Shown piece after piece: positions 5,617 through 62,318 of a DNA stretch of 64,000 bases. The stretch is from Nannocystis pusilla (lineage in GTDB: Bacteria > Myxococcota_A > Polyangia > Nannocystales > Nannocystaceae): positions 29,990 through 93,989 of the forward strand of contig NZ_JAIRAU010000047.1 in the NCBI RefSeq assembly GCF_020073745.1, written 5' to 3'. How positions within the stretch are numbered: position 1 is the stretch's first letter; each line of letters starts with the position of its first letter. The position numbers and the translations under genes are program-made. The notes beneath the pieces were generated by a model. That model searched no databases, had not been told where the DNA came from, and saw nothing but the letters and a program-made list of their open reading frames with translations.

Positions 5617-6839
5617 TCCGACTCTGCGACGGAAGCCGTGAAGACGTAGGTGTCCGTCTCGAATACAACGTCGTCAACCACGATCAGGTCGGGATCTCGC
5701 CTTCCGAAGGCCGTGATGGAGTTACCCGCCGTCACTTCGAAGGGAACCGAGCCGGTGACGTCGACCATGTTCCCGGTGACACGCACCCAGATCGAGCCGG
5801 GAGGGAACTCGACACTGGAGCCGTCGGACATACCTGCCGCCGGGGTGATGAGGTTGATCTCGATGTCCTCGAGGTCCGAGCTTCCGTACACCACGTCCTC
5901 GACCTGGAGGCTCAACGTGTCGATCATGAATACGCAGAGCGGATCGAAGCAGGCGTAGTCGGTTGTTGTGATCGTACCCGAAGCCTGCGGCGCCACGAAC
6001 GCGGCTCCGTCGGTGATCTCGATCTCGCTGTCCTCGACAACGCAAGATTGACGCTCCTTCGTCGGAGGCTGGTTCTTCGCCTCCGTGCAGTTGTCCGTGT
6101 TCGTCTCGAAGTCGATCTCGGCGGACGTACACTTGAGATCGAGGACTGCGTCGGCGAAGCACCCCCCTTTCAACACGCCGAGATCCTGTACACAACCCGC
6201 GCTGCCGAGGTTGAGAGTCACCCCCGAACCGGAATCCGCGACGATTTGCACACACAAGTCGAAGTTCTCCAGCAACTTATCCCGCCAGTACTTTACAGAC
6301 TGGGCGATGTTATCTTCACAAACATTAATTTCGATCTGCGAGGGAGGCGGGGTTCCTTCCGAACACTTGTCGTCGGGAGGATCCAGGATCAATGCCTCAA
6401 ATCGCGCCAGTGCATCGCTACAAGCGGCATGTGCACAGTCGACGAGACAGGCTGCATCGCCTTTCTCTTCTCCTTCCGGATCCGCCTCGATCCCCACCTC
6501 GCAGCACGTTTCGACCCGAGGGCCCTCAGTCGGGTCGTCGGAGTTGAAAGGAATGATGCCATCCGCCCCTTCGGTTTCTTCACTGTCAATCAAGATCACT
6601 TGATTTGACTCGACACTGGGCTCGCAGTCGATCTCGTCTTCGTCGTTGAAGTCACAGACAACGAAGCGCAATTCGCCCTGCACCGCCCCTGCGCAGCCGT
6701 ATCGCTGGCCTGGACCGTCCGTCCCTTCGAACACTTGCTGGGCACAGAGCCCACCGGGAGGGGGCAAATCGGCGATTATCGTCGTCTCACCGACCGTCGC
6801 CCCCGTGGCGACCTCGTCGTCTCCACATCCCCCCAACAT
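5601..6839 (-). CDS. acidic Cys-rich hypothetical protein (no signal peptide found)
   Basis: 412-aa ORF with clearly lower GC than the flanks and an in-frame TGA immediately upstream of the ATG. Asp/Glu- and Cys-rich. Composition suggests a foreign origin. Confidence 0.45.
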   Translation of the reverse strand: MLGGCGDDEVATGATVGETTIIADLPPPGGLCAQQVFEGTDGPGQRYGCAGAVQGELRFVVCDFNDEDEIDCEPSVESNQVILIDSEETEGADGIIPFNSDDPTEGPRVETCCEVGIEADPEGEEKGDAACLVDCAHAACSDALARFEALILDPPDDKCSEGTPPPSQIEINVCEDNIAQSVKYWRDKLLENFDLCVQIVADSGSGVTLNLGSAGCVQDLGVLKGGCFADAVLDLKCTSAEIDFETNTDNCTEAKNQPPTKERQSCVVEDSEIEITDGAAFVAPQASGTITTTDYACFDPLCVFMIDTLSLQVEDVVYGSSDLEDIEINLITPAAGMSDGSSVEFPPGSIWVRVTGNMVDVTGSVPFEVTAGNSITAFGRRDPDLIVVDDVVFETDTYVFTASVAESECEPL

Positions 6840-7114
6840 CGTTCAAGTAAAAAACACGCCGGCACACATCATTGCTCTTACAACATTCCAACGCCCAGTC
6901 GCCATGCTGACCTCCAACAGGAAGATATTCGCAGAGGAGGCTTCGCCCTGCAAGCCCTTTCAGAGAACTCCCGTGTGAGCTTACAGCAGACAGCATAAAC
7001 GACGTTATCCCGCCGGGGAAAATCTGTCACAGCGAGTCGAAGCGCAACTTTGTTGCCCACACCTCGCAGAACCCTCTGGCCAATTACCGCCAGCGAATGC
7101 AAAATCCCGCCGAC

Positions 7115-8233
7115 ATGTCATTCCCCGCGTCGAAAGAATCGGTCCGCACGCCGAAGTGGCCGCGAGTGTGCGGTGGCATCGTCGCACTCGGCTTCGCCTG
7201 CGAGAACGACACACCCGTGCCCGAGAGTGAGCCCGTCGACTCCCCGGACGCCGAGATCGTCTACAGCAGCGAACACATCGACATTGCTCCGCTCGGCTCG
7301 GAAGCGCTGTGCGCCGGCACTCTCGCCATGCTCGACGATCACGTGGAGTACGTCCTCGACATGCTCGAGTTGGGGCTGGAAGAACGCATCACCATCTATC
7401 TCTTCCTGAAGGGGGCCGATGTCCCCATTCGCAAGTGGTGCCGGCAGGATGTCTCGGGATGCGCGCGGGGGACCACGATCTATTCGGTCCTGTCTCTGCT
7501 TCCCCACGAAATCGTGCACGCGATCACCTCAAGCGAGGGGCGCTCCTGGTGGGAGGAAGGTGCAGCCCGCGGGCTCGGCGACCCCTCGACCTTCCCCGAT
7601 CTCCTCACCGGCTGGCAGGCGAACCTGGGCGGCGCCGGGCACCTCTCGCGCTGGCTCATCGAGCGCTTCGGCGGCCGGACCTACATGAATCTCTACGCGC
7701 GCACACCGTACGGGGCCTCGCAGGCGAAGGTCGAAGCGGTCGCCCGGACCGTCCTGGGCCGCGAGTTCGACGACGTGCTCGATGAGTATGCGGCCACCGC
7801 TCCCTTCGTCTACCCCCATCACTGGGAGTGCTACGTGTCGTCCGAGGCGGTCGCCGTGCCGTGGGAGGACGAGTACTGGGAGGTTGAGGTCGACCTCGAC
7901 TGCGATCGGACCGACACGTTCAGCAGCCATGTGGCCATTTACGGCATGCAGATGACCGCTCGCGTGCCCGTGACGCTCCCCGCGAACGGGTCTTATTTTT
8001 TCGTCGCCGATCACCCCGACGCCAACCTTGCCATCCAGCCGTGCGCGAGCGAGCCGCGGACGAAGGTGACCCCGGGCGCCTATTCGTGGCCTCTCGAATT
8101 GCTCGGCGCGGCCGGGGCATCACAGCTCGAGGCCGGGCCTCATGTGCTGCTCGTGCATCTCCCGCCCGGGCCGCCGGCTCACGTCCGTATCATCGCCTAC
8201 CCCGAGATCGGCGAGCAGGGCGCACCGCACTGA
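7115..8233 (+). CDS. putative zinc-metalloprotease lipoprotein (HExxH)
   Basis: MSFPASKESVRTPKWPRVCGGIVALGFAC signal plus lipobox. HEIVH (HExxH) motif at LLPHEIVHAITS. The ATG sits in GACATGTCA, a motif-like context. Confidence 0.5.
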   Translation: MSFPASKESVRTPKWPRVCGGIVALGFACENDTPVPESEPVDSPDAEIVYSSEHIDIAPLGSEALCAGTLAMLDDHVEYVLDMLELGLEERITIYLFLKGADVPIRKWCRQDVSGCARGTTIYSVLSLLPHEIVHAITSSEGRSWWEEGAARGLGDPSTFPDLLTGWQANLGGAGHLSRWLIERFGGRTYMNLYARTPYGASQAKVEAVARTVLGREFDDVLDEYAATAPFVYPHHWECYVSSEAVAVPWEDEYWEVEVDLDCDRTDTFSSHVAIYGMQMTARVPVTLPANGSYFFVADHPDANLAIQPCASEPRTKVTPGAYSWPLELLGAAGASQLEAGPHVLLVHLPPGPPAHVRIIAYPEIGEQGAPH

Positions 8234-9580: not shown

Positions 9581-10702
<1,122 letters not shown>

Positions 10703-10749
10703 GCGCCCGCCGCCGCCCGCGTGCACCTGACCGATCGGGCCTGCTCCAA

Positions 10750-10790
10750 GAACCCTGTCCGCAAGTACCTGTCCGCCAGGACCTGTCCCC
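10750..10790. repeat. three CCTGTCC half-motif units with 13-nt period upstream of gcvH
   Basis: aaccctgtccgc / aagtacctgtccgc / caggacctgtcccc read directly. The gcvH start (ATGTCCGACATC) is also motif-like. Confidence 0.5.
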
Positions 10791-10815
10791 GACCATCCGC
10801 CCCGAAGCCTCCATC

Positions 10816-11205
10816 ATGTCCGACATCCCGCGCAACCTCCGCTACACCAAAGATCACGAGTGGGCCCGCCTCGAGGCCGACGGCACCGTCGTCGTCGGCA
10901 TCACCGCCCACGCGGTCGACAACCTCGGCGACGTCACCGTCGTCGGCCTGCCGGCCGTCGGCGCCCGCTTCAGCGCCGGCGACTCGTTCGGCACCGTCGA
11001 CTCGGTCAAGGCCGTGAGCGAGCTGTACGCGCCGCTCGACGGCGATGTGGTCGCGATCAACGAGCGGCTCAATGACGCCCCCGAGCTGGTCAACACCAGC
11101 TGCTACGGCGACGGCTGGATGATCCAGATCCGCCCCGCCGATCCCCGCGCCCTCGACGGCCTGCTCGACGCCGACCAGTACGAGGCCCACCTCAAGAGCG
11201 AGTGA
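10816..11205 (+). CDS. gcvH: glycine cleavage system H protein (lipoyl carrier)
   Basis: Typical GcvH sequence YTKDHEWARLEADGTVVVGITAHAVDNLGDV...SVKAVSELYAPLDG, with the lipoyl-Lys context SVKA. Confidence 0.9.
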   Translation: MSDIPRNLRYTKDHEWARLEADGTVVVGITAHAVDNLGDVTVVGLPAVGARFSAGDSFGTVDSVKAVSELYAPLDGDVVAINERLNDAPELVNTSCYGDGWMIQIRPADPRALDGLLDADQYEAHLKSE

Positions 11206-11215
11206 CGCGATCGGC

Positions 11216-12220
11216 ATGACTGTTCGGCTCGCGCTCGCCGCGGCGCTCGGCCTCGCGCCGGCCGCGGCCTCGACGCCCGCCCCCGAGGGCCCGGCGGCGC
11301 CGCCTGCGAGCCGAAACACCCCCACGGCCGCCCCCGAGGGCCCGGCGCCTGCCCCCGCGAGCCCGCCCCCGCCGGCCCCCACGCGGCCCCCTCCCGTCGA
11401 GGCCGAGGGCAACGCCCGCGCCGAGCCGCCGGGCGGAGTACCGCCGGCCGGCGTGCCGAAGATCCCCTCGCCGCGCTCGCTCGCCACCTACGGCAAGGGC
11501 GGCCCGGTCAAACCGATCTCCGAGGAGACCCTCGGCGCCGTCGGCCTGACGCGCCGGCGCGACGGCACCCTGATGTACGTCGATCCCGGCAAGCGCTTCA
11601 CCGCCGAGTTCAACGCCGACGGCACCGTCCGCTTCGGCGACCGCTGGAACCGCGACCAGCACGGCAACAAGATGAAGGGCTCGCGCGCCGCCCTGCGCCA
11701 GATCAACATGGCCGGCCTCGGCGTCTCCGGCCCCTCGGAGTGGCTGGTCAAGCTGCAGGACCTCATGGGCGGCCCCGAGGTCGACGCCAGCGCCAAGCGC
11801 GAGTTCCTCGACCGCACCCGCGAGCTCCGCACGCAGATGGCGGTCGAGTGGACCATGCGGATCTTGACCTACCGCCTCGGCACGCTCGAGCGCGAGCTGT
11901 TCGAGCTGTGGAGCGCCGCCGGCGACGCCGCCGCCAAGCGCGAGCTGATCTTCCAGCGCTGGGACGAGTGCGACGAGGCCTACCGCGTCACGATCGAGGG
12001 CGAGCTGCCCGAGGAGGCCGTCTCGGAGCTCGATCGCGTGCGCACCGACACCGCCGACCAGGCGCGGCGGATCATCGAGCAGTTCGTGCGCCGCCAGCTG
12101 CCGCGCACCGGCCCGCACGCCTTCAGCCGCAGCGAGCTGACCGACATGAACCGCCGCCGCACCAGCCGGCAAGAGTTCCGCCCCTACGACCTGCAAGCGA
12201 ACAAGAGGACCGCCCCGTGA
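11216..12220 (+). CDS. hypothetical secreted protein with Pro-rich N-terminal region
   Basis: Signal-peptide-like MTVRLALAAALGLAPAAAS. High GC3. Stop overlaps the GTG start of the next gene (GTGA). Confidence 0.5.
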   Translation: MTVRLALAAALGLAPAAASTPAPEGPAAPPASRNTPTAAPEGPAPAPASPPPPAPTRPPPVEAEGNARAEPPGGVPPAGVPKIPSPRSLATYGKGGPVKPISEETLGAVGLTRRRDGTLMYVDPGKRFTAEFNADGTVRFGDRWNRDQHGNKMKGSRAALRQINMAGLGVSGPSEWLVKLQDLMGGPEVDASAKREFLDRTRELRTQMAVEWTMRILTYRLGTLERELFELWSAAGDAAAKRELIFQRWDECDEAYRVTIEGELPEEAVSELDRVRTDTADQARRIIEQFVRRQLPRTGPHAFSRSELTDMNRRRTSRQEFRPYDLQANKRTAP

Positions 12221-13386
12221 CTCCGATCCGCCCCGAACTGCAGCCCGAGCTGGCCCGCTACCGCAGCGACTACCCGATCCTCGCCCACTCGGTCTACATG
12301 AACAGCAACAGCATGGGCGCGATGCCGCGGCAGGCCGCCGACGCCCTGCAGAAGTACACCGACGACTGGGCCCGCGAGGGCGTCGAGGTGTGGCCGCACT
12401 GGCTCGACGTCATGCGCGACACCGCCGACAGCGCCGCGCGCTTCCTCAACGCCCCGCCCGGGCAGACGATCCTCAACCAGAACGTCGCCTACTTCCAGGC
12501 CGCGATCGCCAGCTGCCTCGAGTACCCGAAAGGCAAGAACCGCGTCGTCGTCGAGTCGCTGCAGTTCCCCAACGTCCTCTACGTGTGGGAGCGCTTCACC
12601 GACCTCGGCGCCGAGCTGGCGCTCGTGCCCTCGGACGACGGCATGACGATCCCGACCGAGCGCATGCTCGAGGCGATCGACGAGCGCACCGCGATCGTCC
12701 CGCTGTCGCACGGCATCTACGTCTCGGGCGCGCTGCAGGACATCACCGCGATCACCCGCCGGGCCCACGAGGTCGGCGCGCTCGTCATGGTCGACGTCTA
12801 CCAGACCGCCGGCGCGGTCCCGATCGACGTCGCCGAGTGGGGCGCCGACATCGTCGTCGGCGGCAGCCACAAGTGGCTGTGCGGCGGCCCCGGCACCGCC
12901 TTCATGTGGATGAAGCCCGAGGTGCGCGAGCGCCTGAGGCCGCGCCTGGTCGGCTGGATGGGCCACCAGGACCCGTTCGCGTTCGAGGCGCCGCCGATCC
13001 GCTTCGCCAGCGACCACCGCCACTTCCTCGCCGGCACGCCCTCGATCCCCGCCTACTACGTGGCCCGCGCGGCCTACGAGAACCTGCACGAGATCGGGGT
13101 GCCGCGGATCCGCGCCCACAACCTCGCGCTGTGCCAGCGGATCATCGAGCGGGCCCAGGCCGCCGGCCTCGTGGTCCACTCGCCGCTCGAGCACGAGCGC
13201 CGCACCGGCTTCGTCGCCGTCGACTTCGCAGGCAGCGAGGAGGCCAGCAAGCGCCTCATCGACGAGCACTACAAGCTCGACTGGCGCCCCAACTGCGGCC
13301 TCCGCCTCGGGCCCCACTTCTACAACACGGAGGCCGAGGTCGAGCGCATGATGGACCGCATCGTCGCCCTCGCCGGCCGCGCGTGA
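12217..13386 (+). CDS. aminotransferase class V-fold PLP-dependent enzyme (kynureninase/SufS-like fold)
   Basis: GTG start overlapping the upstream stop. PLP-lysine context GGSHKWLCGGPG. Overall class-V aminotransferase layout. Confidence 0.7.
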   Translation: MTPIRPELQPELARYRSDYPILAHSVYMNSNSMGAMPRQAADALQKYTDDWAREGVEVWPHWLDVMRDTADSAARFLNAPPGQTILNQNVAYFQAAIASCLEYPKGKNRVVVESLQFPNVLYVWERFTDLGAELALVPSDDGMTIPTERMLEAIDERTAIVPLSHGIYVSGALQDITAITRRAHEVGALVMVDVYQTAGAVPIDVAEWGADIVVGGSHKWLCGGPGTAFMWMKPEVRERLRPRLVGWMGHQDPFAFEAPPIRFASDHRHFLAGTPSIPAYYVARAAYENLHEIGVPRIRAHNLALCQRIIERAQAAGLVVHSPLEHERRTGFVAVDFAGSEEASKRLIDEHYKLDWRPNCGLRLGPHFYNTEAEVERMMDRIVALAGRA

Positions 13387-14864: not shown

Positions 14865-15028
14865 ACCCGTCCATCTCCGGCGCGCCTCTCGATCATCCGC
14901 CCGCCTGCGACAACCTCGCACCGCCCGGACGCGCCCCGGACCTCGACCTCGCCTCCGCCGCGCCCGGCAGCGTCCGCGCGAAGCGGCCGGCCGACGGCGC
15001 GGGCTTGCGGTAGGATGCACCGTCGTCG

Positions 15029-38157: not shown

Positions 38158-38778
38158 ATGAACATCGACCTCTCCAAGTTTTTGACCGTGGCCGCGCTCA
38201 TGAGCCAGGGCCTCGGCACAGCCGCCTGCACGATCAATCTCGGCAACGGCCTGACCGACACCAACATCGGCCCCGAGACCTCGACCACGAGCACGACCGG
38301 CGCCACCGACGCTACGACCATCACCGACGGCGGGACCGAGGGCACCGCGACCGGCACGGACACGAGCGTGCCGACCACCACCGACGCGCCGACCAGCACC
38401 GACGCGACCGCCGGCACCGCCACCGACGCCACTACCGGAACCGCCACCGACGCCACCACCGGCGAGGGCTTCGTCTGCAGCGACGGCACCGCGCTCGAGA
38501 ACCCCGCCTGGGTCTGCGATGAGAACCCCGACTGCCCCGACGGCTCCGACGAGGTCACCGGCTGCGGCCTCGACGCCTTCACCTGCAGCGGCGACAAGCA
38601 GGAGATCCCCGCGACCTGGGCCTGCGACGAGGTCCCCGACTGCGCGGACAACTCCGACGAGGTCACCGGCTGCGGCGAGGAGGCCTTCACCTGCGCCGAT
38701 GGCCTCGAGATCCCGGCGGCCTGGAAGTGCGACACGGCCCAGGACTGCGCCGACGGCTCCGACGAGGCCGACTGCTGA
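38158..38778 (+). CDS. lipoprotein with Thr-rich linker and three LDL-receptor class A-like modules
   Basis: MNIDLSKFLTVAALMSQGLGTAAC lipobox. Three repeats fitting the LDLa consensus C-x-D-G-x-x-I-P-x-x-W-x-C-D-x-x-x-D-C-x-D-x-S-D-E (e.g. FTCSGDKQEIPATWACDEVPDCADNSDEVTGC). Confidence 0.65.
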   Translation: MNIDLSKFLTVAALMSQGLGTAACTINLGNGLTDTNIGPETSTTSTTGATDATTITDGGTEGTATGTDTSVPTTTDAPTSTDATAGTATDATTGTATDATTGEGFVCSDGTALENPAWVCDENPDCPDGSDEVTGCGLDAFTCSGDKQEIPATWACDEVPDCADNSDEVTGCGEEAFTCADGLEIPAAWKCDTAQDCADGSDEADC

Positions 38779-49227: not shown

Positions 49228-50487
49228 ATGCACGCCCGCGATCCCGAGCTCTCCGCCGCCGACCCCGAGATCTTCGCGCTGATCGAGCAGGAGGACGCGC
49301 GCCAGCGCGACAGCCTGCGCCTGATCGCCAGCGAGAACTACGTGTCGAAGGCCGTGCTCGCCGCCACCGGCAGCAGCCTCACCAACAAGTACGCCGAGGG
49401 TTATCCGGGCAAGCGGTACTACGAGGGCATGGACTTCGTCGACCCGATCGAGTCGCTCGCCGTCGCCCGCGCGCGCGAGCTGTTCGGGGCCGACCACGCC
49501 AACGTGCAGCCTTACAGCGGATCGCCGGCCAACCTCGCCGCGCTGCTCGCCCTGTGCCAGACCGGCGACACGATCATGGGGCTCAGCCTCCCCGCGGGCG
49601 GTCACCTCACCCACGGGTGGAAGGTCAGCGCCACCGGCATCTACTACAAGGCCGTCCAGTACGGCGTCCGCCGCGACGATCACCGCATCGACATGGACGA
49701 GGTCCGCAGCCTCGCGCTGACCCATCGCCCCAAGCTCATCTGGGTCGGTCACTCGGCCTACCCGCGCCAGCTCGACTTCGCCGGCTTCGCCGCGATCGCG
49801 CGCGAAGTCGGGGCCTACCTCGCGGCCGACATCGCGCACATCGCCGGCCTCGTCGCCGGCGGCGCGCACCCGAGCCCGGTGCCGCACGCCGACGTCGTCA
49901 CCACCACCACGCACAAGACCCTCCGCGGCCCGCGCGGCGGCCTCATCCTCTGCAAGGCCGAGCACGCCGCCGCGATCGACAAGGCCGTGTTCCCCGGCCT
50001 GCAGGGCGGCCCCCACTGCCACACCACCGCGGCCAAGGCGGTCGCCTTCCGCGAGGCGCTGCAGCCGAGCTTCCGCGACTACGCGCAGCAGATCGTCGCC
50101 AACGCGCGGGCCCTCGCCGAGGCCCTGAGCGGGCGCGGACACACGCTCGTCTCCGGCGGCACCGACAACCACCTCTTGCTCGTCGATCTCACGTCCACCG
50201 GTCACGGCGGTCGGCACGTCGCCCGGGTGCTCAACCGCTGCGGCATCGAGCTCAACGCCAACGCGATCCCGTTCGACCCGCGCAAGCCGTTCGACCCCTC
50301 GGGCCTGCGGATCGGCCTCGCCGCGATCACCTCGCGCGGCGTCCAGACCCATCACATCCCGCACGTCGCCGACCTCATCGCCGACGGCATCGGCCTCGCC
50401 GTCGCCGACGCCGACGACGCCAAGTGCGAGGCCCACCGCGCCCGCGTGCGCGAGTTCCTGCGCGCCTTCCCGGCCCCCGGCCTGTGA
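49228..50487 (+). CDS. glyA: serine hydroxymethyltransferase
   Basis: [21 protein letters not shown] (PLP-Lys), full-length SHMT. Confidence 0.9.
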
Positions 50488-50498
50488 CCGCCACCGCG

Positions 50499-51680
50499 AT
50501 GCAGCCGTACCCGATCACCGCTATGGCCCTGTGCAACGGCATGGGCGACAGCACCGCCGCCGTGCTCGCGGCCCTGCGCGCCGGTCGCTCCGGCCTCGGC
50601 CCGTGCCCCGCCGAGTTCGAGCTCGACGCCGTCGTCGGCGCCGTCCCGGGCCCGCTGCCGCCGCTGCCCGGCTCCCTCGAGCGCGTGCGCGACACCCGAC
50701 AGACGCGGATCGCCGCCGTCGCCCTCGCCGAGCTGCAGGCCCCGCTCGCCCGCGCCTGCGCCCGCTGGGGCGCCGATCGCGTCGGCGTCGTCCTCGGCAC
50801 CAGCACCGGCGGCATCGAGGCCAGCGAGGGCGCCTACGCCCACGCCCACGCCCACGGCGGCGCCTTGCCGTCCCACTACGACGTCGAGCGCTCGCACGCC
50901 CTCGACGCCGTCCTCCACCTCGCGCGCGTCTTCGGCGGCGGCCTCGCCGGCCCGGCCTACGTCGTCTCGACCGCCTGCTCCTCGAGCGCCAAGGTGTTCG
51001 CCTCGGCCCAGCGCCTGCTCGCCGCCGGCCTGTGCGACGCCGTCCTCGTCGGCGGCGTCGACAGCCTGTGCCGCCTCACCGTGCGCGGCTTTGCTGGCCT
51101 CGAGGTCCTGTCCTCTGCGCCATGTCGTCCGTTCTCGCGCGAGCGCGCCGGCATCAACATCGGCGAGGGCGCCGCCCTGCTCCTGGTCGAACGGACAGGT
51201 GAGGGCCCCGCCCGCCTGCTCGGCGTCGGCGAGAGCAGCGACGCCTACCACATGACCAGCCCGCACCCCGAGGGCCTCGGCGCCCGCCTGGCGATGGAGC
51301 GCGCGCTGCAGCTCGCCGGCCTCGTCGCCGCCGACGTCGACCACGTCAACGCCCACGGCACCGGCACCCGGCAGAACGACAGCATGGAGAGCCAGGCGAT
51401 CCGCGCCGTCTTCGCCGGCGCGCCCGCGCCCGCCGTCGTCGCCACCAAGGGCTACACCGGGCACATGCTCGGGGCCGCCGGCGCCACCGAGGTCGCCTTC
51501 GTCGTCGACGCCATCGCCGGCGGCTACCTCCCGGCCAGCGTCGGCGCCGACCCGCTCGACGAGGCGCTCGGCGTCGACGTCGTCACCGCCCGCCGCGAGC
51601 AGCGGACCCGCGCGGCCCTCAGCAACTCGTTCGCGTTCGGCGGCAGCAACTGCAGCGTCCTCGTCGGAGGCCCGGCATGA
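50499..51680 (+). CDS. beta-ketoacyl-ACP synthase (KAS I/II-like)
   Basis: Active-site Cys in VVSTACSSS. His-His pair (AHGTGT, GHMLGAAG). C-terminal NSFAFGGSNCSVLV. Stop overlaps the next start. Confidence 0.8.
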   Translation: MQPYPITAMALCNGMGDSTAAVLAALRAGRSGLGPCPAEFELDAVVGAVPGPLPPLPGSLERVRDTRQTRIAAVALAELQAPLARACARWGADRVGVVLGTSTGGIEASEGAYAHAHAHGGALPSHYDVERSHALDAVLHLARVFGGGLAGPAYVVSTACSSSAKVFASAQRLLAAGLCDAVLVGGVDSLCRLTVRGFAGLEVLSSAPCRPFSRERAGINIGEGAALLLVERTGEGPARLLGVGESSDAYHMTSPHPEGLGARLAMERALQLAGLVAADVDHVNAHGTGTRQNDSMESQAIRAVFAGAPAPAVVATKGYTGHMLGAAGATEVAFVVDAIAGGYLPASVGADPLDEALGVDVVTARREQRTRAALSNSFAFGGSNCSVLVGGPA

Positions 51681-52468
51681 GCGCGCCCGGCTTCAGCGTC
51701 CGCGGCCTCGGCTTCTGGGCCCCCGGCTACCCCGACCTCGCCGCCTGGCAGGCCCGCCCCGACGCCTGTCCCGAAGACCAGAGTGCCACGCCGAAGGCCG
51801 AGCTCTTGCCGCCGATGATGCGCCGGCGCACCAGCCTGCTCACCCGCATGGCCGCCGAGGTCGCGGCCCAGGCCCTGCGCGCCGGCGGCCTCGACCCGAC
51901 CGGCGCCACCCTCGTCTACGGCTCCGTCTACGGCGAGATCCGCACCACCCTCGACCTCCTGGCCGCCCTGCTCGTCGCCGGCGAGCCGCTGTCGCCGACC
52001 AAGTTCCACAACAGCGTCCACAACACCGCCGCCGGCTACGTCTCGATCGCCACCGGCAGCCGGGCCGGCAACGCCGCCCTCTCGGCCGGCCGCTCCACCC
52101 TCGCCATGGGCCTGCTCGAGTGCGCCGCGCTCGTCGCCGCCGGCGAGGGCGACGTCGTGCTCGTCATCGCCGAGGAGCCGCTGCCCGAGCCGCTGGCCGC
52201 CGGCCGCCGCTGGGGCCCGTTCGCCGCCGCCTTCGCCCTGGCCGCGCCTGCCTCTTCAGACATGCCCGCCACGACATGTCGTCTGGAACAGGGCCCCAAC
52301 GACAAGTCCCTCGCGCCAGCACGTCCCGCGCCGGCGTGGCTGGCCGACAACCCGTGCGCCGCCGCGCTCGCGCTGGTCGACGCCCTCGCCGCCGGCGCCC
52401 CCGCCCGCGTCGCCCTCGAGCCGCACCTCGCCGCCGGCTGGCACTGCGGGCTGGGGGCCGGCGCATGA
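51677..52468 (+). CDS. KS-like protein lacking the catalytic Cys (chain-length-factor-like partner)
   Basis: KS N-terminal fold similarity without the TACSS motif. Contains an in-frame motif insertion. ATGA overlaps on both sides. Confidence 0.6.
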   Translation: MSAPGFSVRGLGFWAPGYPDLAAWQARPDACPEDQSATPKAELLPPMMRRRTSLLTRMAAEVAAQALRAGGLDPTGATLVYGSVYGEIRTTLDLLAALLVAGEPLSPTKFHNSVHNTAAGYVSIATGSRAGNAALSAGRSTLAMGLLECAALVAAGEGDVVLVIAEEPLPEPLAAGRRWGPFAAAFALAAPASSDMPATTCRLEQGPNDKSLAPARPAPAWLADNPCAAALALVDALAAGAPARVALEPHLAAGWHCGLGAGA

Positions 52469-52917
52469 CCGCCGCGTTCGCGCCGGTGGCCGAGTTGGTC
52501 CCGCAGCGCCCGCCGATGCTGCTCGTCGACGAGGTCCTCGCCGCCGGCGACGACGCGATCACCTGCGCCGCCGTCGTCCGCCCCGACAACCTGTTCGCCG
52601 TCGCCGGCCGCGTCCACGCCTCCGTCGCGCTCGAGTACATGGCCCAGGCGATCGCCGCGTTCGCCGGCCTGCGCGCGCGCGCCGAGGGTCAGCCGCCCGC
52701 GCTCGGCATGATCGCCGCCTGCCGCGGCCTCGAGCTGCACGCCGAGCACCTCGCCGTCGGCGACGCGCTGCAGATCGTCGCCACCCGCGTGTTCGCCGGC
52801 GCCATGGCCGAGTACCGGGCCGCCGTCACCCGCCGCGGCGAGCCGCTCGCCGAGGCCGTCCTCCACGTCGTCACCGCCGCCCCTGCCACCACCACCGCCC
52901 CCGGGAGCCCCGCATGA
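52465..52917 (+). CDS. FabA/FabZ-like hot-dog 3-hydroxyacyl-ACP dehydratase
   Basis: PMLLVDEV motif and hot-dog length (150 aa). Confidence 0.6.
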   Translation: MTAAFAPVAELVPQRPPMLLVDEVLAAGDDAITCAAVVRPDNLFAVAGRVHASVALEYMAQAIAAFAGLRARAEGQPPALGMIAACRGLELHAEHLAVGDALQIVATRVFAGAMAEYRAAVTRRGEPLAEAVLHVVTAAPATTTAPGSPA

Positions 52918-53636
52918 AGCCGCGCGCGCTCGTCACCGGCGCCAGTCGAGGGATCGGCGCCGCGATCGCCGAGGCCCTCGCGGCCGCCGGCCACCCGATC
53001 GTCCTCAACTACCGCAGCGACGACGCCGCCGCCGAGGCCGTCGCCGCCCGGATCCGCCAGGCCGGCGGCGAGGTCGTCCTCAGCCGCTTCGACGTCGGCG
53101 ACGACGCGGCCGCCGACGCCGCCATGGCCGCGATCCTGGCCGACCCGCGGCCGCTCGGCGTCGTCGTCAACAACGCCGGCATCGCCCGCGACGCCCCGTT
53201 CCCGGCGCTCGAGCGGGCCGACTGGGAAGCTGTCCTTCGGACCAGCCTCGGCGGCTTCTACAACGTCACCCGGCCCGTGATCATGCCGATGGTGCGGCGC
53301 AAGTGGGGCCGGATCATCACCATGAGCTCGGTCTCGGCGCAGATCGGCAACCGGGGTCAGGTCGCCTACGCCGCGGCCAAGGCCGGCGTCATCGGCGCGA
53401 CGAAGTCGCTCGCGCTCGAGCTCGCCCGCAAGGGCGTCACCGTCAACGCCGTCGCCCCCGGCCTCGTCGACACCGACATGATCAAGGACGTCCCGCTCGA
53501 GCACGTCATGCCGCGGATCCCCGCCCAGCGGCTCGGCACTGCCCGCGAGGTCGCCGCGCTGGTCGCCTTCCTCGCCACCGACGAAGCCGCCTACATCACC
53601 GGTCAGGTGATCGGTGTCAACGGCGGCATGGTATGA
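52914..53636 (+). CDS. 3-oxoacyl-ACP reductase (SDR family, FabG-like)
   Basis: TGASRGIGAAIA cofactor motif, NNAG, catalytic S...YAAAK. Confidence 0.85.
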   Translation: MKPRALVTGASRGIGAAIAEALAAAGHPIVLNYRSDDAAAEAVAARIRQAGGEVVLSRFDVGDDAAADAAMAAILADPRPLGVVVNNAGIARDAPFPALERADWEAVLRTSLGGFYNVTRPVIMPMVRRKWGRIITMSSVSAQIGNRGQVAYAAAKAGVIGATKSLALELARKGVTVNAVAPGLVDTDMIKDVPLEHVMPRIPAQRLGTAREVAALVAFLATDEAAYITGQVIGVNGGMV

Positions 53637-53643
53637 CGCGGCC

Positions 53644-54843
53644 ATGCATGACGTCGTGATCGTCGGCGCCGGCCCTGCCGGTTCGACCGCCGCCAACTTG
53701 CTCGCCCAGGCCGGCGTCCGCGCGCTCGCGCTCGACATGGACGTGTTCCCGCGGTTTCACATCGGCGAGTCGCTGCTGCCGATCGACCTGCCGATCTTCG
53801 CCCGCCTCGGCGTCGTCATGGAGCGCACGCGCTGGCAGTACAAGCAGGGCGCCGAGTTCATCGACGAGCGCACCGGCGAGTTCGCCTTCTTCAGCTTCGC
53901 CGACGGCCTCGAGGGCACGCCCCCCCACGCCTGGCAGGTCGACCGCGCCGAATTCGACACCATGCTCGCCGAGCTCGCGGTCTCCCGCGGCGCCGACATC
54001 CGCTTCGGCGAGCGCGTCGGCGACATCGAGTTCGCCGGCGATCACGTCCGCGTCGTCACCGACCGCGGCGAGCACCGGGCCCGCTTCCTCCTCGATTGCA
54101 CCGGTCAGGACGCCATGCTCGGCCGCGGCGCCCGCACGATCGCCCCGCTGCACGAGCTCGGACGCGCCGCCGTCTTCTGTCACTTCGACGACCTCGCGCC
54201 CGACGTGCAGGCCGAGCTCGGCGAGCAGGGCAACATCAAGGTCCTGATCGTCGAGGACGGCTGGCAATGGGTGATCCCGATGCACGGCGGTCGGCTCAGC
54301 GTCGGCCTCGTCAAGTGGCGCGGCAAGCTCGACGACGACGCCTTCGAGGCCGCCCTCGCCGCCTCGCCGCTGTGTCGCCGGCTCACCGCCGGGGCCACGC
54401 GCAGCGCCTCGCGGACGATCCGCAACTGGAGCTACAAGAACACCCGCCCCTCCGGTCCGCGCTGGGCCTGCGTCGGCGACGCCCGCGCCTTCCTCGACCC
54501 GGTGTTCTCGTCGGGCGTCTCGCTGGCGATGCTGGGCGCCGAGCGGACCGTCGACCTCCTCGTCCCTGCCCTCGCCGCCGGACGCGAGGCCGACCCCGAT
54601 CTCATGGGCCCCGTCCACGCCACCATGCAGATCGCCTACGACAGCTTCGAACAGCTGATCCGCCGCTTTTACCACACGCGCCTCGTCTCCCACCTGTTCT
54701 TCGCCCGCACGCCCGACCCGCAGCTGCGTCGTGGCCTCATCAGCATGCTCGCCGGCGACGTCTGGCGCGACGACAACCCGTTCCAGGACATGCTCCGCGG
54801 GTCACGCGTCCAGCCGCAGCGGGTCACGACGCCGGGCGAGTGA
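53644..54843 (+). CDS. flavin-dependent halogenase-like FAD-binding enzyme
   Basis: VVIVGAGPAGS Rossmann motif. GWQWVIP (WxWxIP) and FLDPVFSSG (FxxPxxSxG) motifs characteristic of tryptophan-halogenase-family enzymes. Confidence 0.7.
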   Translation: MHDVVIVGAGPAGSTAANLLAQAGVRALALDMDVFPRFHIGESLLPIDLPIFARLGVVMERTRWQYKQGAEFIDERTGEFAFFSFADGLEGTPPHAWQVDRAEFDTMLAELAVSRGADIRFGERVGDIEFAGDHVRVVTDRGEHRARFLLDCTGQDAMLGRGARTIAPLHELGRAAVFCHFDDLAPDVQAELGEQGNIKVLIVEDGWQWVIPMHGGRLSVGLVKWRGKLDDDAFEAALAASPLCRRLTAGATRSASRTIRNWSYKNTRPSGPRWACVGDARAFLDPVFSSGVSLAMLGAERTVDLLVPALAAGREADPDLMGPVHATMQIAYDSFEQLIRRFYHTRLVSHLFFARTPDPQLRRGLISMLAGDVWRDDNPFQDMLRGSRVQPQRVTTPGE

Positions 54844-54992: not shown

Positions 54993-56243
54993 ATGCACGA
55001 ACGGATCCTTCCTCGCATCCGGGTCGGGGTCGCCGCGCGTATGGGCGGCGGGGTGCTGGCCGTGGCGCTCGCGGGCTGCCTCGATCGCAACGCCGGGCTC
55101 GACGATCCGACCGTCGTCGAGCCTTCGACCGGCGACAGCAGCGGCAGCAGCAGCGGCTCGACCACCTTCCCCGGCATCATGACCACCACGGTCGACTCCG
55201 GTCACGGCGGCAGCGACAGCGACGGCACCACCGCCGAGCCCGCGCCCGAGCCGTGCGGCAACGGCAAGATCGACCCGCCCGAGCTGTGCGACCAGGGCGA
55301 GGCCAACTCCGACGCCGGCGAGTGCACCCTCGCCTGTCGCTGGAACGTGTGCGGCGACGGCCGCGTCCACCTCGGCGACGAGGCCTGCGACGACGGCCCC
55401 GACAACGGCAAGTACGGCCACTGCGACATGAAGTGCGGCGGCCCGGCCGAGCGCTGCGGCGACCTCTCGGTGCAGGCCGACGAGGGCGAGCAGTGCGACT
55501 CGAGCGACCCACACTTCGCCTGCCTCAAGGAGTGCACGTGGGCGACCTCGTGCACCAACATCAAGGCCAGCTGGGGCGACGAGGCCAAGACCGGCCTCTA
55601 CCTCATCCGCCGCATGAGCCAGTTCTTGACCGTCTGGTGCGACATGGACGCCGACGGCGGCGGCTACACCTTCGTCAAGTACGCCTCGGGCACCGTGCTC
55701 GACGACATGAACGACCCCCAGTACCCGTTCAACCCCGAGCCGCTCACCGCCGTCGAGGCCGAGCAGAAGTGCGGCTACTGGGGCCTGCGACTGTTCGCCC
55801 CGCGCAGCCCCGGGCACCTCGCCGCCGCCGTCGGGGCCGCCAACGCCAAGCAGTTCGCCCCGATCCAGAAGGACACCCTGTTCCCGCCGTACCCCGAGAT
55901 CGACAGCGACGTCGAGGGCTACCTGTCGATCATGGGCGTCTATCCGGTCACCCCCGGCACGAGCTGCGTCGGCAAGGCGCTCAACAGCGAGGACTGCCCC
56001 GAGTGGGCGATCAAGCCCGATCCGCTGCACCCCGACGTCGTCCTGCCCTACTGGGTCAGCGACACCTCCATCGCCAACCAGCCGAACACCACCGCCTGCG
56101 CCGGCTGCTCCCTCTTCTACCACTGGAACATCGTCGCCCAGCCGCCCCAGCTCGCCGGCTACATCACGATCAACATGATGAACAAGGGCGCGATCAGCTC
56201 GCACTTCCTGTGCGAGCTCGGCGACAAGCTCGGCCCGGGCTGA
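54993..56243 (+). CDS. lipoprotein with Cys-rich repeats and C-terminal fibrinogen-related domain
   Basis: VLAVALAGC lipobox. Cys-rich repeats (CGNGKIDPPELCDQGEAN, CGDGRVHLGDEACDDGPDNG). FLTVWCDMDADGGGYTFVKYASG matches the fibrinogen C-domain signature (VYCDM-DGGGWT). Confidence 0.6.
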   Translation: MHERILPRIRVGVAARMGGGVLAVALAGCLDRNAGLDDPTVVEPSTGDSSGSSSGSTTFPGIMTTTVDSGHGGSDSDGTTAEPAPEPCGNGKIDPPELCDQGEANSDAGECTLACRWNVCGDGRVHLGDEACDDGPDNGKYGHCDMKCGGPAERCGDLSVQADEGEQCDSSDPHFACLKECTWATSCTNIKASWGDEAKTGLYLIRRMSQFLTVWCDMDADGGGYTFVKYASGTVLDDMNDPQYPFNPEPLTAVEAEQKCGYWGLRLFAPRSPGHLAAAVGAANAKQFAPIQKDTLFPPYPEIDSDVEGYLSIMGVYPVTPGTSCVGKALNSEDCPEWAIKPDPLHPDVVLPYWVSDTSIANQPNTTACAGCSLFYHWNIVAQPPQLAGYITINMMNKGAISSHFLCELGDKLGPG

Positions 56244-59319: not shown

Positions 59320-60621
59320 GTGCCCAAGGCACCCCTGCTCGCTCCGCCCGGGCCGCCGACGCTCACCTTCCGCTGGGACGGCGCCCCCGTCGCCGCCTGC
59401 CCCGGCGACACCGTCGCCTCGGCGCTGATCGCCGCCGGCGAGCTCGCCACCAGCCGCAGCGCCAAGTACCGCCGCCTGCGCGGCCCGGCCTGCCTGCACG
59501 GCGGCTGCGGCACCTGCCTGGTGCGCGTCGACGGCCGGCCCAACCAGCGCGCCTGTCTCACGCCTGTCCGCGAGGACATGGTCGTCGAGCCGCAGAACAC
59601 CTACGGCGGCCTCGACCCGACCGCCCTCGTCGACCAGATCTTCCGCCGCGGCATCGACCACCACCACCTCGTCGTCTACCCCCGGCTCGCCAACCAGATG
59701 ATGCAGGGCGTCGCGCGCGAGCTGGCCGGCTTCGGCGAGCTGCCCGACGCCCCGCCCGAGGGCGCCGCCGGTCTCTTCGACCATGTCCCCGAGGTCCTGG
59801 TCATCGGGGCAGGTCGCTCCGGGCGCGCGCTCGCGGCCGCCCTCGCCGCCGCCGGGCGCCCGCCGCTGGTCGTCGAGCGCCGGGCCGCCGCCGCCCTGCC
59901 CGCCGCCGAGCGCCCGGCCCGGCTGCTCGCCGGCGTCGGCGTGTTCGCCTGCTACCCGCAGGAGCGGCTGTGGGCGGCCGCCTCCGAGCACCCGCCCGTG
60001 CTCCACCGGCTGCGCCCGCGCCACGTCGTGCTGGCCGTCGGCGCCCACGAGCCGACCATCCCGCTGGCCAACAACGACCTCCCCGGGGTCGTCTCGGCGC
60101 GTGGCCTCGCGGACATGCTCGAACAGACAGGTCGCCGCCTCGCCGCGCGCGTCGTCGTCGTCGGCGAGGGCCCGCGCGCCGAGCTGCTCGCCGCCGGCCT
60201 CGGCGCCGAGCGGGTCGCCCCGGCGCGCGTGCACAAGCTGCTCGGCGCCCGCCGGGTCAAGGGCGTGCAGCTCGACGACGGCAAGATCCTCCGCTGCGAC
60301 CTCGTCGCCCTCGCCCCCGACCCCGCCCCCGCGTTCGAGCTGGCCGCCCAGGCCGGCGCGCCGATCCGCTTCACCGGGGCCGGCTTCGCCCCCGTCTGCG
60401 ACCCCGACGGCCGGATCGCCGCCGGCCCGGCCGCCCACCCGCTCGAGGCCGCCGACGCCCAGACCGCCCCGCCGCCGCCGTGGACCCTGTGGGCAGTCGG
60501 CGAGCTGGCCGGCGCGACCACCCCCGCGGAGATCCAGGCCAGCGTCGACCGCTGCGCCGCCGCCCTCCTGCGCGCGCTCGCCGAGTCACCTGCTCCGGAG
60601 GACAGCCATGCCCGCGCCTGA
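59320..60621 (+). CDS. FAD/NAD(P)-binding oxidoreductase with N-terminal 2Fe-2S domain (HcnB / opine oxidase A / sarcosine oxidase alpha-like)
   Basis: N-terminal Cys cluster (CPGDTVASAL...CLHGGCGTC). VLVIGAGRSG Rossmann motif and second dinucleotide fold. GTG start inferred; start uncertain. Confidence 0.6.
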   Translation: MPKAPLLAPPGPPTLTFRWDGAPVAACPGDTVASALIAAGELATSRSAKYRRLRGPACLHGGCGTCLVRVDGRPNQRACLTPVREDMVVEPQNTYGGLDPTALVDQIFRRGIDHHHLVVYPRLANQMMQGVARELAGFGELPDAPPEGAAGLFDHVPEVLVIGAGRSGRALAAALAAAGRPPLVVERRAAAALPAAERPARLLAGVGVFACYPQERLWAAASEHPPVLHRLRPRHVVLAVGAHEPTIPLANNDLPGVVSARGLADMLEQTGRRLAARVVVVGEGPRAELLAAGLGAERVAPARVHKLLGARRVKGVQLDDGKILRCDLVALAPDPAPAFELAAQAGAPIRFTGAGFAPVCDPDGRIAAGPAAHPLEAADAQTAPPPPWTLWAVGELAGATTPAEIQASVDRCAAALLRALAESPAPEDSHARA

Positions 60622-60631
60622 GCCCCCGCGC

Positions 60632-60770
60632 CCGCACCTGTCCCCGCGGACAGGCGCCTCGCCCGCGCGCCTCCACCCGCACATGTCCCTGCGGACAGCC
60701 ACTTCTCGACCCGCTCCGGGCCGCTGCGTGACCTCGGGCTTGCGCTCCCATCCGCCCCCGCGGACAGCGA
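60632..60770. repeat. cluster of CCTGTCC...GGACAGG-type inverted repeats in the hcnB-like to hcnA-like gap
   Basis: cacctgtccccgcggacaggcg, cacatgtccctgcggacagcc and cccccgcggacagcg read directly. Confidence 0.55.
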
Positions 60771-60804
60771 CCACCTCCACCATCCCCCGGCTCCGAGGCC
60801 AACC

Positions 60805-61100
60805 ATGACCGCGCGCACCTTCGTCTGTCGCTGCGAGGACGTCACGCTCGGCGAGGTCGAGCGGGCGATCGCCGTCGGCCTCGCCGACGTCGAGGAGATC
60901 AAGCGCTACACCGGCCTCGGCACCGGCCCCTGCCAGGGCAAGGAGTGCCTGTCCGCGCTCGGCCGCCTCCTCGTCGCCCGCGGCCTCGTGCCGGCGGCGG
61001 CGCTGCGGCCGTTCACCGCGCGCCCGCCGGTCGAGCCGGTCACCTTCGGCGCCCTCGCGGCCGGCGCCACCGGCCCCGTCGCCCCGGAGGATCCCTCGCG

Positions 61101-61104
<4 letters not shown>
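60805..61104 (+). CDS. BFD-like (2Fe-2S)-binding small subunit (HcnA-like)
   Basis: CRCEDVTLGEVERAI...GLGTGPCQGKEC four-Cys BFD-like pattern. 99 aa. ATGA overlap with the next gene. Confidence 0.6.

Positions 61105-62318
<1,214 letters not shown>

Follow-up and report, generated by a model that had tools for sequence, protein, structure and literature searches.

Positions 49228-54843 of a 64-kb stretch of Nannocystis pusilla DNA (the window) hold a compact run of six genes that starts with glyA and ends with a flavin-dependent halogenase gene. Is this run a minimal halogenating system that stands on its own, as originally predicted, or a part of something larger? Our analysis indicates that the five genes after glyA are very likely the detached core of a halogenated aryl-polyene (APE) lipid pathway split over two loci in Nannocystis.

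Gene order and enzyme assignments

Gene boundaries were defined by GC3-based gene calling together with the list of open reading frames, and the junction sequences were read. Both agree with the predicted arrangement of six head-to-tail genes separated by tiny gaps or 4-nt overlaps. The genes, with the next one downstream, are:

49228..50487, + strand: glyA, serine hydroxymethyltransferase (PF00464, E=1e-152; NF000586, 575 bits)
50499..51680, + strand: ApeO-type elongating ketosynthase (KS; NF006618/PRK09185, 443 bits)
51677..52468, + strand: ApeC-type chain-length-factor partner (CLF; PF13723 Ketoacyl-synt_2, E=7e-41)
52465..52917, + strand: ApeP-like hot-dog dehydratase subunit (DH; PF22817, E=2.5e-12)
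52914..53636, + strand: ApeQ-type NADPH ketoreductase, a FabG-like SDR (KR; NF004200, 327 bits)
53644..54843, + strand: short flavin-dependent halogenase, 399 aa (HAL; PF04820 Trp_halogenase, E=1e-28)
54993..56243, + strand: fibrinogen-like Cys-rich lipoprotein (FIB; NF040941, TIGR02232 and lipobox)

The KS begins at ATG 50499, 11 nt after glyA, or alternatively at GTG 50484, in a 4-nt overlap with the glyA stop. Overlaps of 4 nt join KS to CLF, CLF to DH and DH to KR, and 7 nt separate KR from the halogenase ATG at 53644. The halogenase is unlikely to start at GTG 53614, because homologues are likewise 399 residues long. In other genomes, KS, CLF, DH, KR and halogenase genes are again linked at ~24 of the 30 best halogenase loci, so the arrangement is no product of chance.

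Judged by their sequences, the four polyketide-synthase-type genes are orthologues of ApeO, ApeC, ApeP and ApeQ, in line with the aryl-polyene/xanthomonadin-like core that had been proposed. The KS contains both the N- and C-terminal ketoacyl-synthase domains, exceeds the 407-bit cut-off of its family model and best matches ApeO from Acinetobacter baumannii (7F28_B, 6e-73) and Xenorhabdus doucetiae (6QSP_A, 1e-70), with a weaker match to AbApeR (7F27, 1e-32). Its active-site residues C160/H286/H322 are present. The 263-residue CLF-like protein is a truncated KS fold without the C-terminal domain, and its sole PDB matches are XdApeC (6QSP_B) and AbApeC (7F28_A). It has no Cys at the aligned position and lacks the Cys/His-His set, so that the predicted pairing of an active KS with a Cys-less partner holds.

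The dehydratase had been described as FabZ-like. The hot-dog assignment stands, but FabZ proper does not, since the protein belongs to the ApeP-like family and reaches only E = 0.006 with the FabZ model, far below the cut-off. Its one significant PDB match is 6QSR_B, a Xenorhabdus FabA/FabZ-type dehydratase chain (E=3.3e-06). The Glu of LEYMAQ is kept, but Gln/Arg stand in place of the two His of Xd ApeP. Because these aligned His are absent and the gene evolves fast (dN/dS 0.65-0.88), the catalytic competence of this subunit appears uncertain. The KR carries an S-Y152-K156 triad and a TGASRGIG motif, as expected of the SDR ketoreductase it was taken to be, and its best PDB matches include AbApeQ (7CAW/6NRP) and 4IIU from E. 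coli CFT073.

The halogenase, 100% identical to N. pusilla MBZ5714173.1, possesses a GxGxxG motif (GAGPAG, 8-13), the catalytic Lys (K67), GWQWVIP (206-212) and FLDPVFSSG (283-291), the last three invariant across 12 orthologues. Its nearest solved structures are halogenases and not mono-oxygenases: the best is 3NIX from Cytophaga hutchinsonii, and 8ZOP, CndH, Bmp2, PltA, Mpy16 and CmlS also match. It is thus a genuine flavin-dependent halogenase of the short CndH/PltA/Bmp2-like type, in an APE-cluster-associated clade found in aryl-polyene/xanthomonadin-type clusters of Myxococcota, Planctomycetota and Xanthomonadales. No flavin reductase partner for it was identified.

Accessory genes and the second locus

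By tblastn and Pfam searches of all other called genes, no homologue of an ACP, AMP-ligase, thioesterase (TE), tyrosine-ammonia-lyase-type enzyme (TAL), GT2, acyltransferase, LolA, MMPL or DUF3261 protein was detected in the 64-kb window, nor was an exporter gene anywhere in it. The predicted lack of nearby ACP, acyltransferase and thioesterase genes is borne out across the window; the self-contained cassette read from it is not.

In relatives, the core is joined to genes for ACP, AMP-ligase/ApeI, GT2, an LpxL-like acyltransferase, a TAL-like enzyme, thioesterase, LolA, MMPL and DUF3261. Nannocystaceae ST9 (L007) has MMPL-MMPL-DUF3261-KS-CLF-DH-KR-KS-HAL, and Enhygromyxa of the same suborder (L009/L010), with proteins 51-63% identical, has TAL-LolA-MMPL-DUF3261-KS-CLF-DH-KR-KS-HAL. 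A Myxococcales MAG (L019) carries LPLAT-ACP-membrane protein-ligase-GT2-LpxL-like-TAL-TE followed by KR-HAL-KS-CLF-DH-LolA-MMPL-DUF3261. Among the Nannocystineae, antiSMASH has also brought out APE clusters in Enhygromyxa salina and Plesiocystis pacifica (PMC6226438); these are contiguous and retain the second KS, whereas in Nannocystis the pathway is in two parts, has no ApeR and follows glyA.

The genome of N. punicea (CP114040.1) contains both halves. Locus B (4.435-4.457 Mb) reads trpE-x-STK-glyA-KS-CLF-DH-KR-HAL-FIB-Maf, syntenic with the window. Locus A (4.745-4.767 Mb), about 300 kb away, encodes an ACP, a 216-aa protein, an AMP-binding protein with an ApeI-like domain, GT2, Lip_A_acyltrans, Lyase_aromatic, 4HBT, LolA_3, MMPL and DUF3261. 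A KS is missing from this locus, and beyond DUF3261 the genes are unrelated. N. exedens, N. radixulma, N. pusilla and N. punicea each have orthologues of both the halogenase and the ApeM-type MMPL. In N. pusilla, the MMPL exporter lies on another contig and is the only gene of the second locus on record there. A search for an ACP and acyltransferase acting in trans had been suggested; an ACP gene does occur at the separate N. punicea locus. A malonyl acyltransferase is normally absent from APE clusters, which borrow FabD (PMC12624758).

An alternative is that the cassette works alone on acyl chains carried by the housekeeping AcpP, with all else coming from FabD and the fatty acid synthase, and that its product is a halogenated polyunsaturated fatty acid or lipid. 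In E. coli, a partial replacement of ApeF by AcpP has been suggested (PMC8253772). No ACP, ligase or thioesterase gene occurs in the 49 kb before the block or the 9 kb after it, and in a second lineage (L002/L003/L005) the KS-CLF-DH-KR-HAL(-FIB) block likewise stands by itself, with flanks of up to 10 kb in which no accessory gene was detected. Nevertheless, we consider this unlikely: all components are orthologous to dedicated Ape proteins whose genes, in relatives, adjoin those for ACP, ligase and export, the KS-less Nannocystis locus would be left pointless, and the rings on which such halogenases act, electron-rich aromatics or pyrroles, are absent from a plain fatty acyl chain. The block is a known cluster type that has been split, not a new minimal system.

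Selective constraint and neighbouring genes

It is very unlikely that the block is a decaying remnant, stranded by rearrangement and no longer functional after losing ApeR. The second KS is indeed absent, and the ApeP-like and ApeC-like genes have relaxed dN/dS values (0.37-0.88), the former also lacking the aligned His. However, five genomes, with halogenases as far apart as about 80% amino acid identity, all keep the five cassette reading frames intact, the catalytic residues of KS, KR and halogenase are intact, and the constraint on these three genes (dN/dS 0.11-0.33) is comparable to that on glyA (0.19-0.25), both measured against the two closest genomes. The missing second KS is tolerable because ApeO-ApeC alone gives full-length polyene in vitro (PMC8358021) and an E. 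coli apeR deletion mutant still produces APE lipid (PMC8253772); ApeR is also absent from many complete contiguous clusters (L018-L022).

The original prediction singled out an unusual fusion to glyA and a coupling to serine/one-carbon metabolism, neither of which is upheld. Were glyA an integral sixth operon gene, supplying for example glycine or methylene-THF for the product, its tight junction with the KS, which has no terminator-like site, and its adjacency in all four Nannocystis loci (including L001, L087 and L088) would be explained. Yet none of the loci fetched from outside Nannocystis (L002-L084) has a glyA 10 kb or less from the halogenase, glyA scores as an ordinary housekeeping enzyme among other housekeeping genes (trp operon, Maf, YggS), and known APE chemistry needs no C1 unit or glycine beyond SAM methylation. 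With no linking evidence found, we regard such a role as extremely improbable; glyA is a co-oriented upstream neighbour, probably co-transcribed with the cassette, and no part of the pathway.

On the other side, the predicted surface lipoprotein gene is present, its product having a lipobox (LAGC) and a fibrinogen-like GGGWT domain. A 149-nt AT-richer spacer separates it from the halogenase gene and its dN/dS is ~1. It is a conserved downstream neighbour in Nannocystis, duplicated at that position in L002/L003/L005, and at most a candidate member of the pathway.

A proposed split pathway and its known counterparts

For the split APE pathway, we propose that the TAL-like enzyme of the second locus would yield 4-coumarate or another 4-hydroxyaryl acid, which the AMP-ligase, with its fused ApeI-like dehydratase domain, would load onto the dedicated ACP. 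The ApeO-ApeC heterodimer of the window would extend this starter with malonyl units from housekeeping FabD, ApeQ would reduce each beta-keto group, and the ApeP-like subunit, probably with the ApeI-like domain, would dehydrate the product; with no enoyl reductase acting, a conjugated polyene would result. By analogy to brominated xanthomonadins, the halogenase may chlorinate or brominate the hydroxyphenyl head group while it is tethered to the ACP. Attachment to a lipid anchor and export to the outer membrane would fall to proteins of the second locus: the thioesterase, GT2, the LpxL-like acyltransferase and LolA/MMPL/DUF3261. The block would have landed downstream of glyA, which may provide its promoter, and co-regulation of the two distant loci is assumed. 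Literature searches brought up neither an aryl polyene nor a halogenated pigment from this genus.

One of the closest counterparts is the apeA-R cluster of E. coli CFT073, X. doucetiae and A. baumannii, which shares the ApeO, ApeC, ApeP and ApeQ types (these give the best PDB matches or the only significant ones). The KS-(CLF)-DH-KR order agrees with apeO-P-Q, the accessory set of N. punicea, a membrane protein included, follows the apeE-apeN order, and FabD lies outside the cluster in both. The differences are the break between apeN and apeO, the position of ApeC beside ApeO instead of at the cluster start, the lack of ApeR, the ligase-ApeI fusion and the added halogenase. The aromatic ammonia-lyase also suggests a coumarate starter rather than 4-HBA, and no ApeB-type methyltransferase was seen in Nannocystis.

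Split APE loci are already known: the arcuflavin pathway of Azoarcus sp. BH72, a xanthomonadin-dialkylresorcinol hybrid, occupies two unlinked loci, one with a halogenase gene (PMC3949708). Its genes are partitioned differently and belong to another phylum, and the dialkylresorcinol ester partner and XanB2 starter enzyme are particular to Azoarcus. The Xanthomonas cluster for xanthomonadins, which are aryl polyenes carrying bromine, and the analogous cluster of Lysobacter likewise place a halogenase gene beside a type II KS/CLF pair (PMC3691225). Xanthomonadales halogenases ~39% identical to ours (L077, L041, L051) adjoin ACP, acyltransferase, LolA, MMPL and KR genes. Halogenase identity is only about 40%, the Nannocystis enzyme may use chloride or bromide, and the Nannocystis loci were seen to have a TAL-like lyase in place of a XanB2-type chorismatase.

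Chlorinated flexirubins are known from Bacteroidetes, and starter supply by a tyrosine-ammonia-lyase-type enzyme is likely in both flexirubin and Nannocystis systems. However, no DarA/DarB dialkylresorcinol genes were present in the loci examined, the KR falls short of the FlxB model (273 bits, under the 340 cut-off), and the Nannocystis anchoring genes, GT2 plus LpxL-like, resemble the E. coli APE type.

Gene organization and enzyme identities

The genes behind glyA, placed by a GC3-based gene call together with the raw ORF list and assigned to domains with Pfam and NCBIfam, form a compact run on the forward strand, listed here with their aryl-polyene (APE) equivalents:

49228-50487 (+), glyA, SHMT
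50499-51680 (+), ketosynthase (KS; ApeO equivalent), ketoacyl-synt N and C domains, PRK09185 above cut-off
51677-52468 (+), KS-like partner (CLF; ApeC equivalent), 263 aa, PF13723 Ketoacyl-synt_2, E=7e-41
52465-52917 (+), hot-dog dehydratase (DH; ApeP equivalent), PF22817 ApeP-like
52914-53636 (+), SDR (KR; ApeQ equivalent), FabG
53644-54843 (+), FAD enzyme (halogenase), PF04820 Trp_halogenase
54993-56243 (+), lipoprotein gene, GGGWT fibrinogen-like domain

glyA and the KS gene are separated by 11 nt; with the GTG at 50484 as the KS start, they would overlap by 4 nt. Inside the five-gene block there are three ATGA-type 4-nt overlaps, including that of the CLF start with the KS stop, and a gap of 7 nt between KR and halogenase, whose gene is followed by a spacer of 149 nt before the lipoprotein gene. 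Gene calls, domains and catalytic residues thus bear out the gene run described in the original prediction, including its lack of ACP, ligase and TE genes. A tblastn search with accessory APE proteins and Pfam analysis of all other called genes found no ACP, starter ligase, TE, acyltransferase/GT or LolA-MMPL-DUF3261 gene in the 64-kb window, and the five-gene block has no enoyl reductase-type gene. The remaining called genes are unrelated (trp operon, FolC-like ligase, Ser/Thr kinase, gcvTHP, Maf, YggS, TldD/PmbA and a hybrid histidine kinase). The missing acyltransferase is normal for such a cluster, because APE clusters use the FabD of fatty acid synthesis (PMC12624758).

The core enzymes resemble those of APE pathways, with the PDB identities of the Ape structures taken from PMC8358021. 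The best matches of the KS are the ApeO proteins of A. baumannii (7F28_B, 6e-73) and X. doucetiae (6QSP_A, 1e-70), far better than ApeR (7F27, 1e-32), the second, FabB-like KS of these pathways, or FabF, and its active-site residues C160, H286 and H322 are present. The CLF matches only ApeC chains in the PDB (XdApeC and AbApeC), whereas the top matches of the KR, which contains the triad Ser-Tyr152-Lys156, include AbApeQ (7CAW, 6NRP) and the CFT073 protein 4IIU. The DH has a single significant match, chain 6QSR_B of a FabA/FabZ-type dehydratase from Xenorhabdus, in agreement with its ApeP-like Pfam call. In this protein the conserved Glu is kept, but Gln and Arg replace the His of Xenorhabdus ApeP, positions that vary across the ApeP family. 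The main role of the ApeP-like protein may be to partner an ApeI-like domain from a second locus, described below. The block thus combines an ApeO-type KS, a paired and truncated ApeC-type CLF, and an ApeP-type DH with an ApeQ-type KR and no enoyl reductase, all hallmarks of APE systems; unlike in canonical APE clusters, the core genes in the window are not contiguous with accessory genes.

Rates of substitution were estimated against the two closest genomes. Because saturation at GC3 inflates dN/dS in absolute terms (0.19-0.37 for glyA itself), the values were used only relative to glyA. The KS (0.32-0.33), KR (0.11-0.14) and halogenase (0.22-0.28) stand beside glyA at 0.19-0.25, with looser values for CLF (0.37-0.46) and DH (0.65-0.85).

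The FAD enzyme

The FAD enzyme carries a GxGxxG FAD site (GAGPAG, residues 8-13) and the two halogenase motifs WxWxIP (GWQWVIP, 206-212) and Fx.Px.Sx.G (FLDPVFSSG, 283-291). Both motifs and K67 are invariant across 12 aligned orthologues, the most distant of which is 53% identical. K67 aligns with the Lys at position 76 of CndH (3E1T), the catalytic Lys that guides HOX or forms a chloramine, and its counterparts in Bmp2, 8ZOP and 3NIX are Lys as well. The best PDB match is 3NIX, a Cytophaga hutchinsonii protein with no assigned function, followed by the named halogenases 8ZOP, CndH, Bmp2, PltA, ChlB4, Mpy16, CmlS, RadH, CtcP-type and PltM; the first non-halogenase in the list is NikD, at E ~1e-5. 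Because the Lys is present, the motifs are invariant and the protein groups with halogenases rather than mono-oxygenases, it is predicted to be a genuine halogenase, and this part of the original prediction holds. Assignment as a geranylgeranyl-reductase-like enoyl reductase (GG-red-SF, 103 bits versus a cut-off of 159) is ruled out by the invariant halogenase Lys and motifs. No gene for a partner flavin reductase was identified in the window.

The protein is 100% identical to N. pusilla MBZ5714173.1, on a 464-kb contig. Among 8000 candidates scored, 7293 relatives were found at E<=1e-10, the closest from Nannocystis and other Myxococcota. The cassette also points to a clade of short flavin halogenases, predicted to act probably on ACP-bound aryl polyenes.

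Related loci and a probable split cluster in Nannocystis

A genome scan with the halogenase yielded 80 loci. In about 24 of the 30 best the halogenase adjoins KS-CLF-DH and/or KR, in the orders KS-CLF-DH-KR-HAL, KS-CLF-DH-KR-KS2-HAL or KR-HAL-KS-CLF-DH (HAL, halogenase). In Nannocystaceae ST9 the genes run MMPL-MMPL-DUF3261-KS-CLF-DH-KR-KS-HAL, which is the apeM-N-O-P-Q-R order of E. coli, and Enhygromyxa salina has the same order with TAL and LolA upstream. A Myxococcales MAG (L019) contains a complete contiguous cluster: a second halogenase, LPLAT, ACP, a membrane protein, AMP-ligase, GT2, an LpxL-like acyltransferase, an aromatic ammonia-lyase, TE, KR, HAL, KS, CLF, DH, LolA, MMPL and DUF3261. 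Homologues from Xanthomonadales (~39% identical; L077, L041 and L051) adjoin ACP, acyltransferase, LolA, MMPL and KR genes, which fits the reported position of a halogenase gene beside KS/CLF in xanthomonadin clusters (PMC3691225). Flanking-ORF clustering, Pfam and tblastn together show the halogenase loci of relatives to be predicted aryl-polyene clusters.

Other members of the clade have different surroundings. Relatives of ~40% identity occur in the Rhodanobacteraceae Dyella, Frateuria and Fulvimonas (L026, L031 and L032; match at 10001-11146), where, unlike in Luteimonas and some MAGs, there is no KS, CLF, KR or APE accessory gene within 10 kb of the halogenase. Part of the clade may accordingly serve another pathway. 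In two Planctomycetota (L004 and L006) a reduced KS-CLF-DH-KS2-(265 aa)-HAL block immediately precedes the nuo (complex I) operon, a further case of a core block amid housekeeping genes; in L004 a PlsC-type acyltransferase follows HAL. Contiguous myxobacterial and planctomycete APE clusters also contain a second, longer (~630-710 aa) halogenase-like gene (L019, 339-2471 (-); L020, 12880-15830 (-); also L016, L018, L022 and L023). It is paired with a Methyltransf_2 O-methyltransferase, and both are absent from Nannocystis.

With the ApeM-type MMPL of Nannocystaceae ST9 as query, orthologues were found in several Nannocystis species. In N. punicea (CP114040.1) the MMPL belongs to an accessory locus at 4.745-4.767 Mb, encoding ACP, a 216-aa protein, AMP-binding+ApeI-like, GT2, Lip_A_acyltrans, Lyase_aromatic, 4HBT, LolA_3, MMPL and DUF3261. 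This locus contains no KS, and unrelated genes lie past DUF3261. The halogenase locus of the same genome, at 4.435-4.457 Mb, reads trpE, x, STK, glyA, KS, CLF, DH, KR, HAL, FIB (the fibrinogen-like lipoprotein gene), Maf and YggS onward, the same synteny as in the window. The two loci are ~300 kb apart, and the break falls exactly between the apeN and apeO equivalents. Comparison of the accessory locus of N. punicea or the MAG with the window by blastn and tblastx revealed SDR-to-SDR similarity only; therefore, the accessory locus is not in the window.

Cluster membership lists place both HAL and the ApeM-type MMPL in N. exedens, N. radixulma, N. pusilla and N. punicea. The N. pusilla MMPL, MBZ5708881.1, is of the same accession series as the halogenase but on a different, 364-kb contig. 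The full accessory gene set is that of N. punicea; for the window's own strain the evidence is this MMPL accession. The cassette is likely to work in concert with the second locus. What had been read as a minimal, ACP-less halogenating polyketide synthase would thus be half of a widespread pigment-lipid pathway, the accessory genes of which lie, in N. punicea, at a separate KS-less locus.

ApeR is absent from the window, from the Nannocystis loci L001, L087 and L088, and from the accessory locus of N. punicea. Its absence is tolerable, because ApeO-ApeC alone produces full-length polyene in vitro (PMC8358021), an E. coli apeR deletion mutant still makes APE lipid (PMC8253772), and many contiguous relatives also lack ApeR.

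Neighbouring genes and relation to known pathways

The original prediction described the block as fused to glyA and suggested a metabolic coupling. glyA adjoins the cassette in all four Nannocystis loci and is next to it in no other locus retrieved with the halogenase (L002-L084). In a sister lineage (L002, L003 and L005) unrelated genes precede the same five-gene block. glyA is thus a lineage-specific landing site, and there is no evidence that it is metabolically coupled to the cassette. Its position may provide read-through transcription of the block. Glycine-related genes occur on both sides of glyA: gcvT, gcvH and a GcvP-like gene ~38 kb upstream (window 9647-13386), and a Fer2_4 / SO_alpha_A3+BFD / DAO trio, HCN-synthase or opine/sarcosine-oxidase-like, 5 kb downstream (window 59320-62318).

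The gene for the Cys-rich, fibrinogen-like (YCDxxxxGGGW) lipoprotein always comes next after the halogenase in Nannocystis, and also follows it in the sister lineage. It has its own spacer and a dN/dS of ~1. In that second Myxococcales lineage it is duplicated (L002, 11434-13941; L005, 7563-10272), with other flanks different.

Judged from sequence, the pathway is predicted to be of APE type, its halogenase resembling that of xanthomonadin clusters and its TAL starter supply that of flexirubin clusters. It differs from the xanthomonadin cluster in that neither the window nor the 22 kb of the N. punicea accessory locus contains a XanB2-type chorismatase (3-/4-hydroxybenzoate), an aromatic ammonia-lyase being present instead. 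It differs from the flexirubin cluster in its KR, which scores 273 bits against the FlxB model, below the cut-off of 340, and in that no DarB-like KS III (DarA/DarB dialkylresorcinol) was seen in the window or in locus L085.

APE clusters have already been noted in Nannocystineae (PMC6226438), and Azoarcus has a described aryl-polyene pathway that is spread over two loci and includes a halogenase (PMC3949708); the literature searched yielded no aryl polyene from Nannocystis. No new biological principle is involved: aryl polyenes with halogen substituents, halogenases encoded next to KS/CLF pairs and APE pathways divided between two loci have all been reported before. The novelty is modest: the cluster is split between apeN and apeO, sits behind glyA, has lost ApeR and includes a halogenase from an uncharacterized clade. 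The locus adds a myxobacterial case of a split, ApeR-less, halogenase-containing APE system; both halves would be under-called or mis-called by genome-mining tools that depend on cluster contiguity.

A fuller reading, which we regard as doubtful, is that two unlinked loci together enable Nannocystis to make an outer-membrane lipid not described so far, a hydroxyphenyl polyene bearing chlorine or bromine. Read-through from the glyA promoter would drive the core block, with a single KS-CLF pair and possibly a non-catalytic ApeP scaffold that depends on the ApeI domain fused to the ligase of the other locus, and the pigment might have the rapidly evolving lipoprotein as its dedicated surface partner or its acceptor. 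If so, a large, biochemically uncharacterized clade of APE-associated, 3NIX-like halogenases would gain in this enzyme its first tractable member.

Elsewhere in the window, where GC is 73%, no Rfam model, tRNA included, matched at the gathering threshold; an 86-nt tRNA-Pro(GGG) called by ARAGORN at 14916-15001 (-) is therefore doubtful. Between 4000 and 8300 GC falls to 0.61-0.67, compared with ~0.73 elsewhere, and the ORFs at 5601-6275 and 7097-8233 have no Pfam match, so that this segment is possibly acquired DNA. A 206-aa protein encoded at 38158-38778 contains three LDL-receptor class A repeats (PF00057, E=2e-24), a domain rarely found in bacteria.
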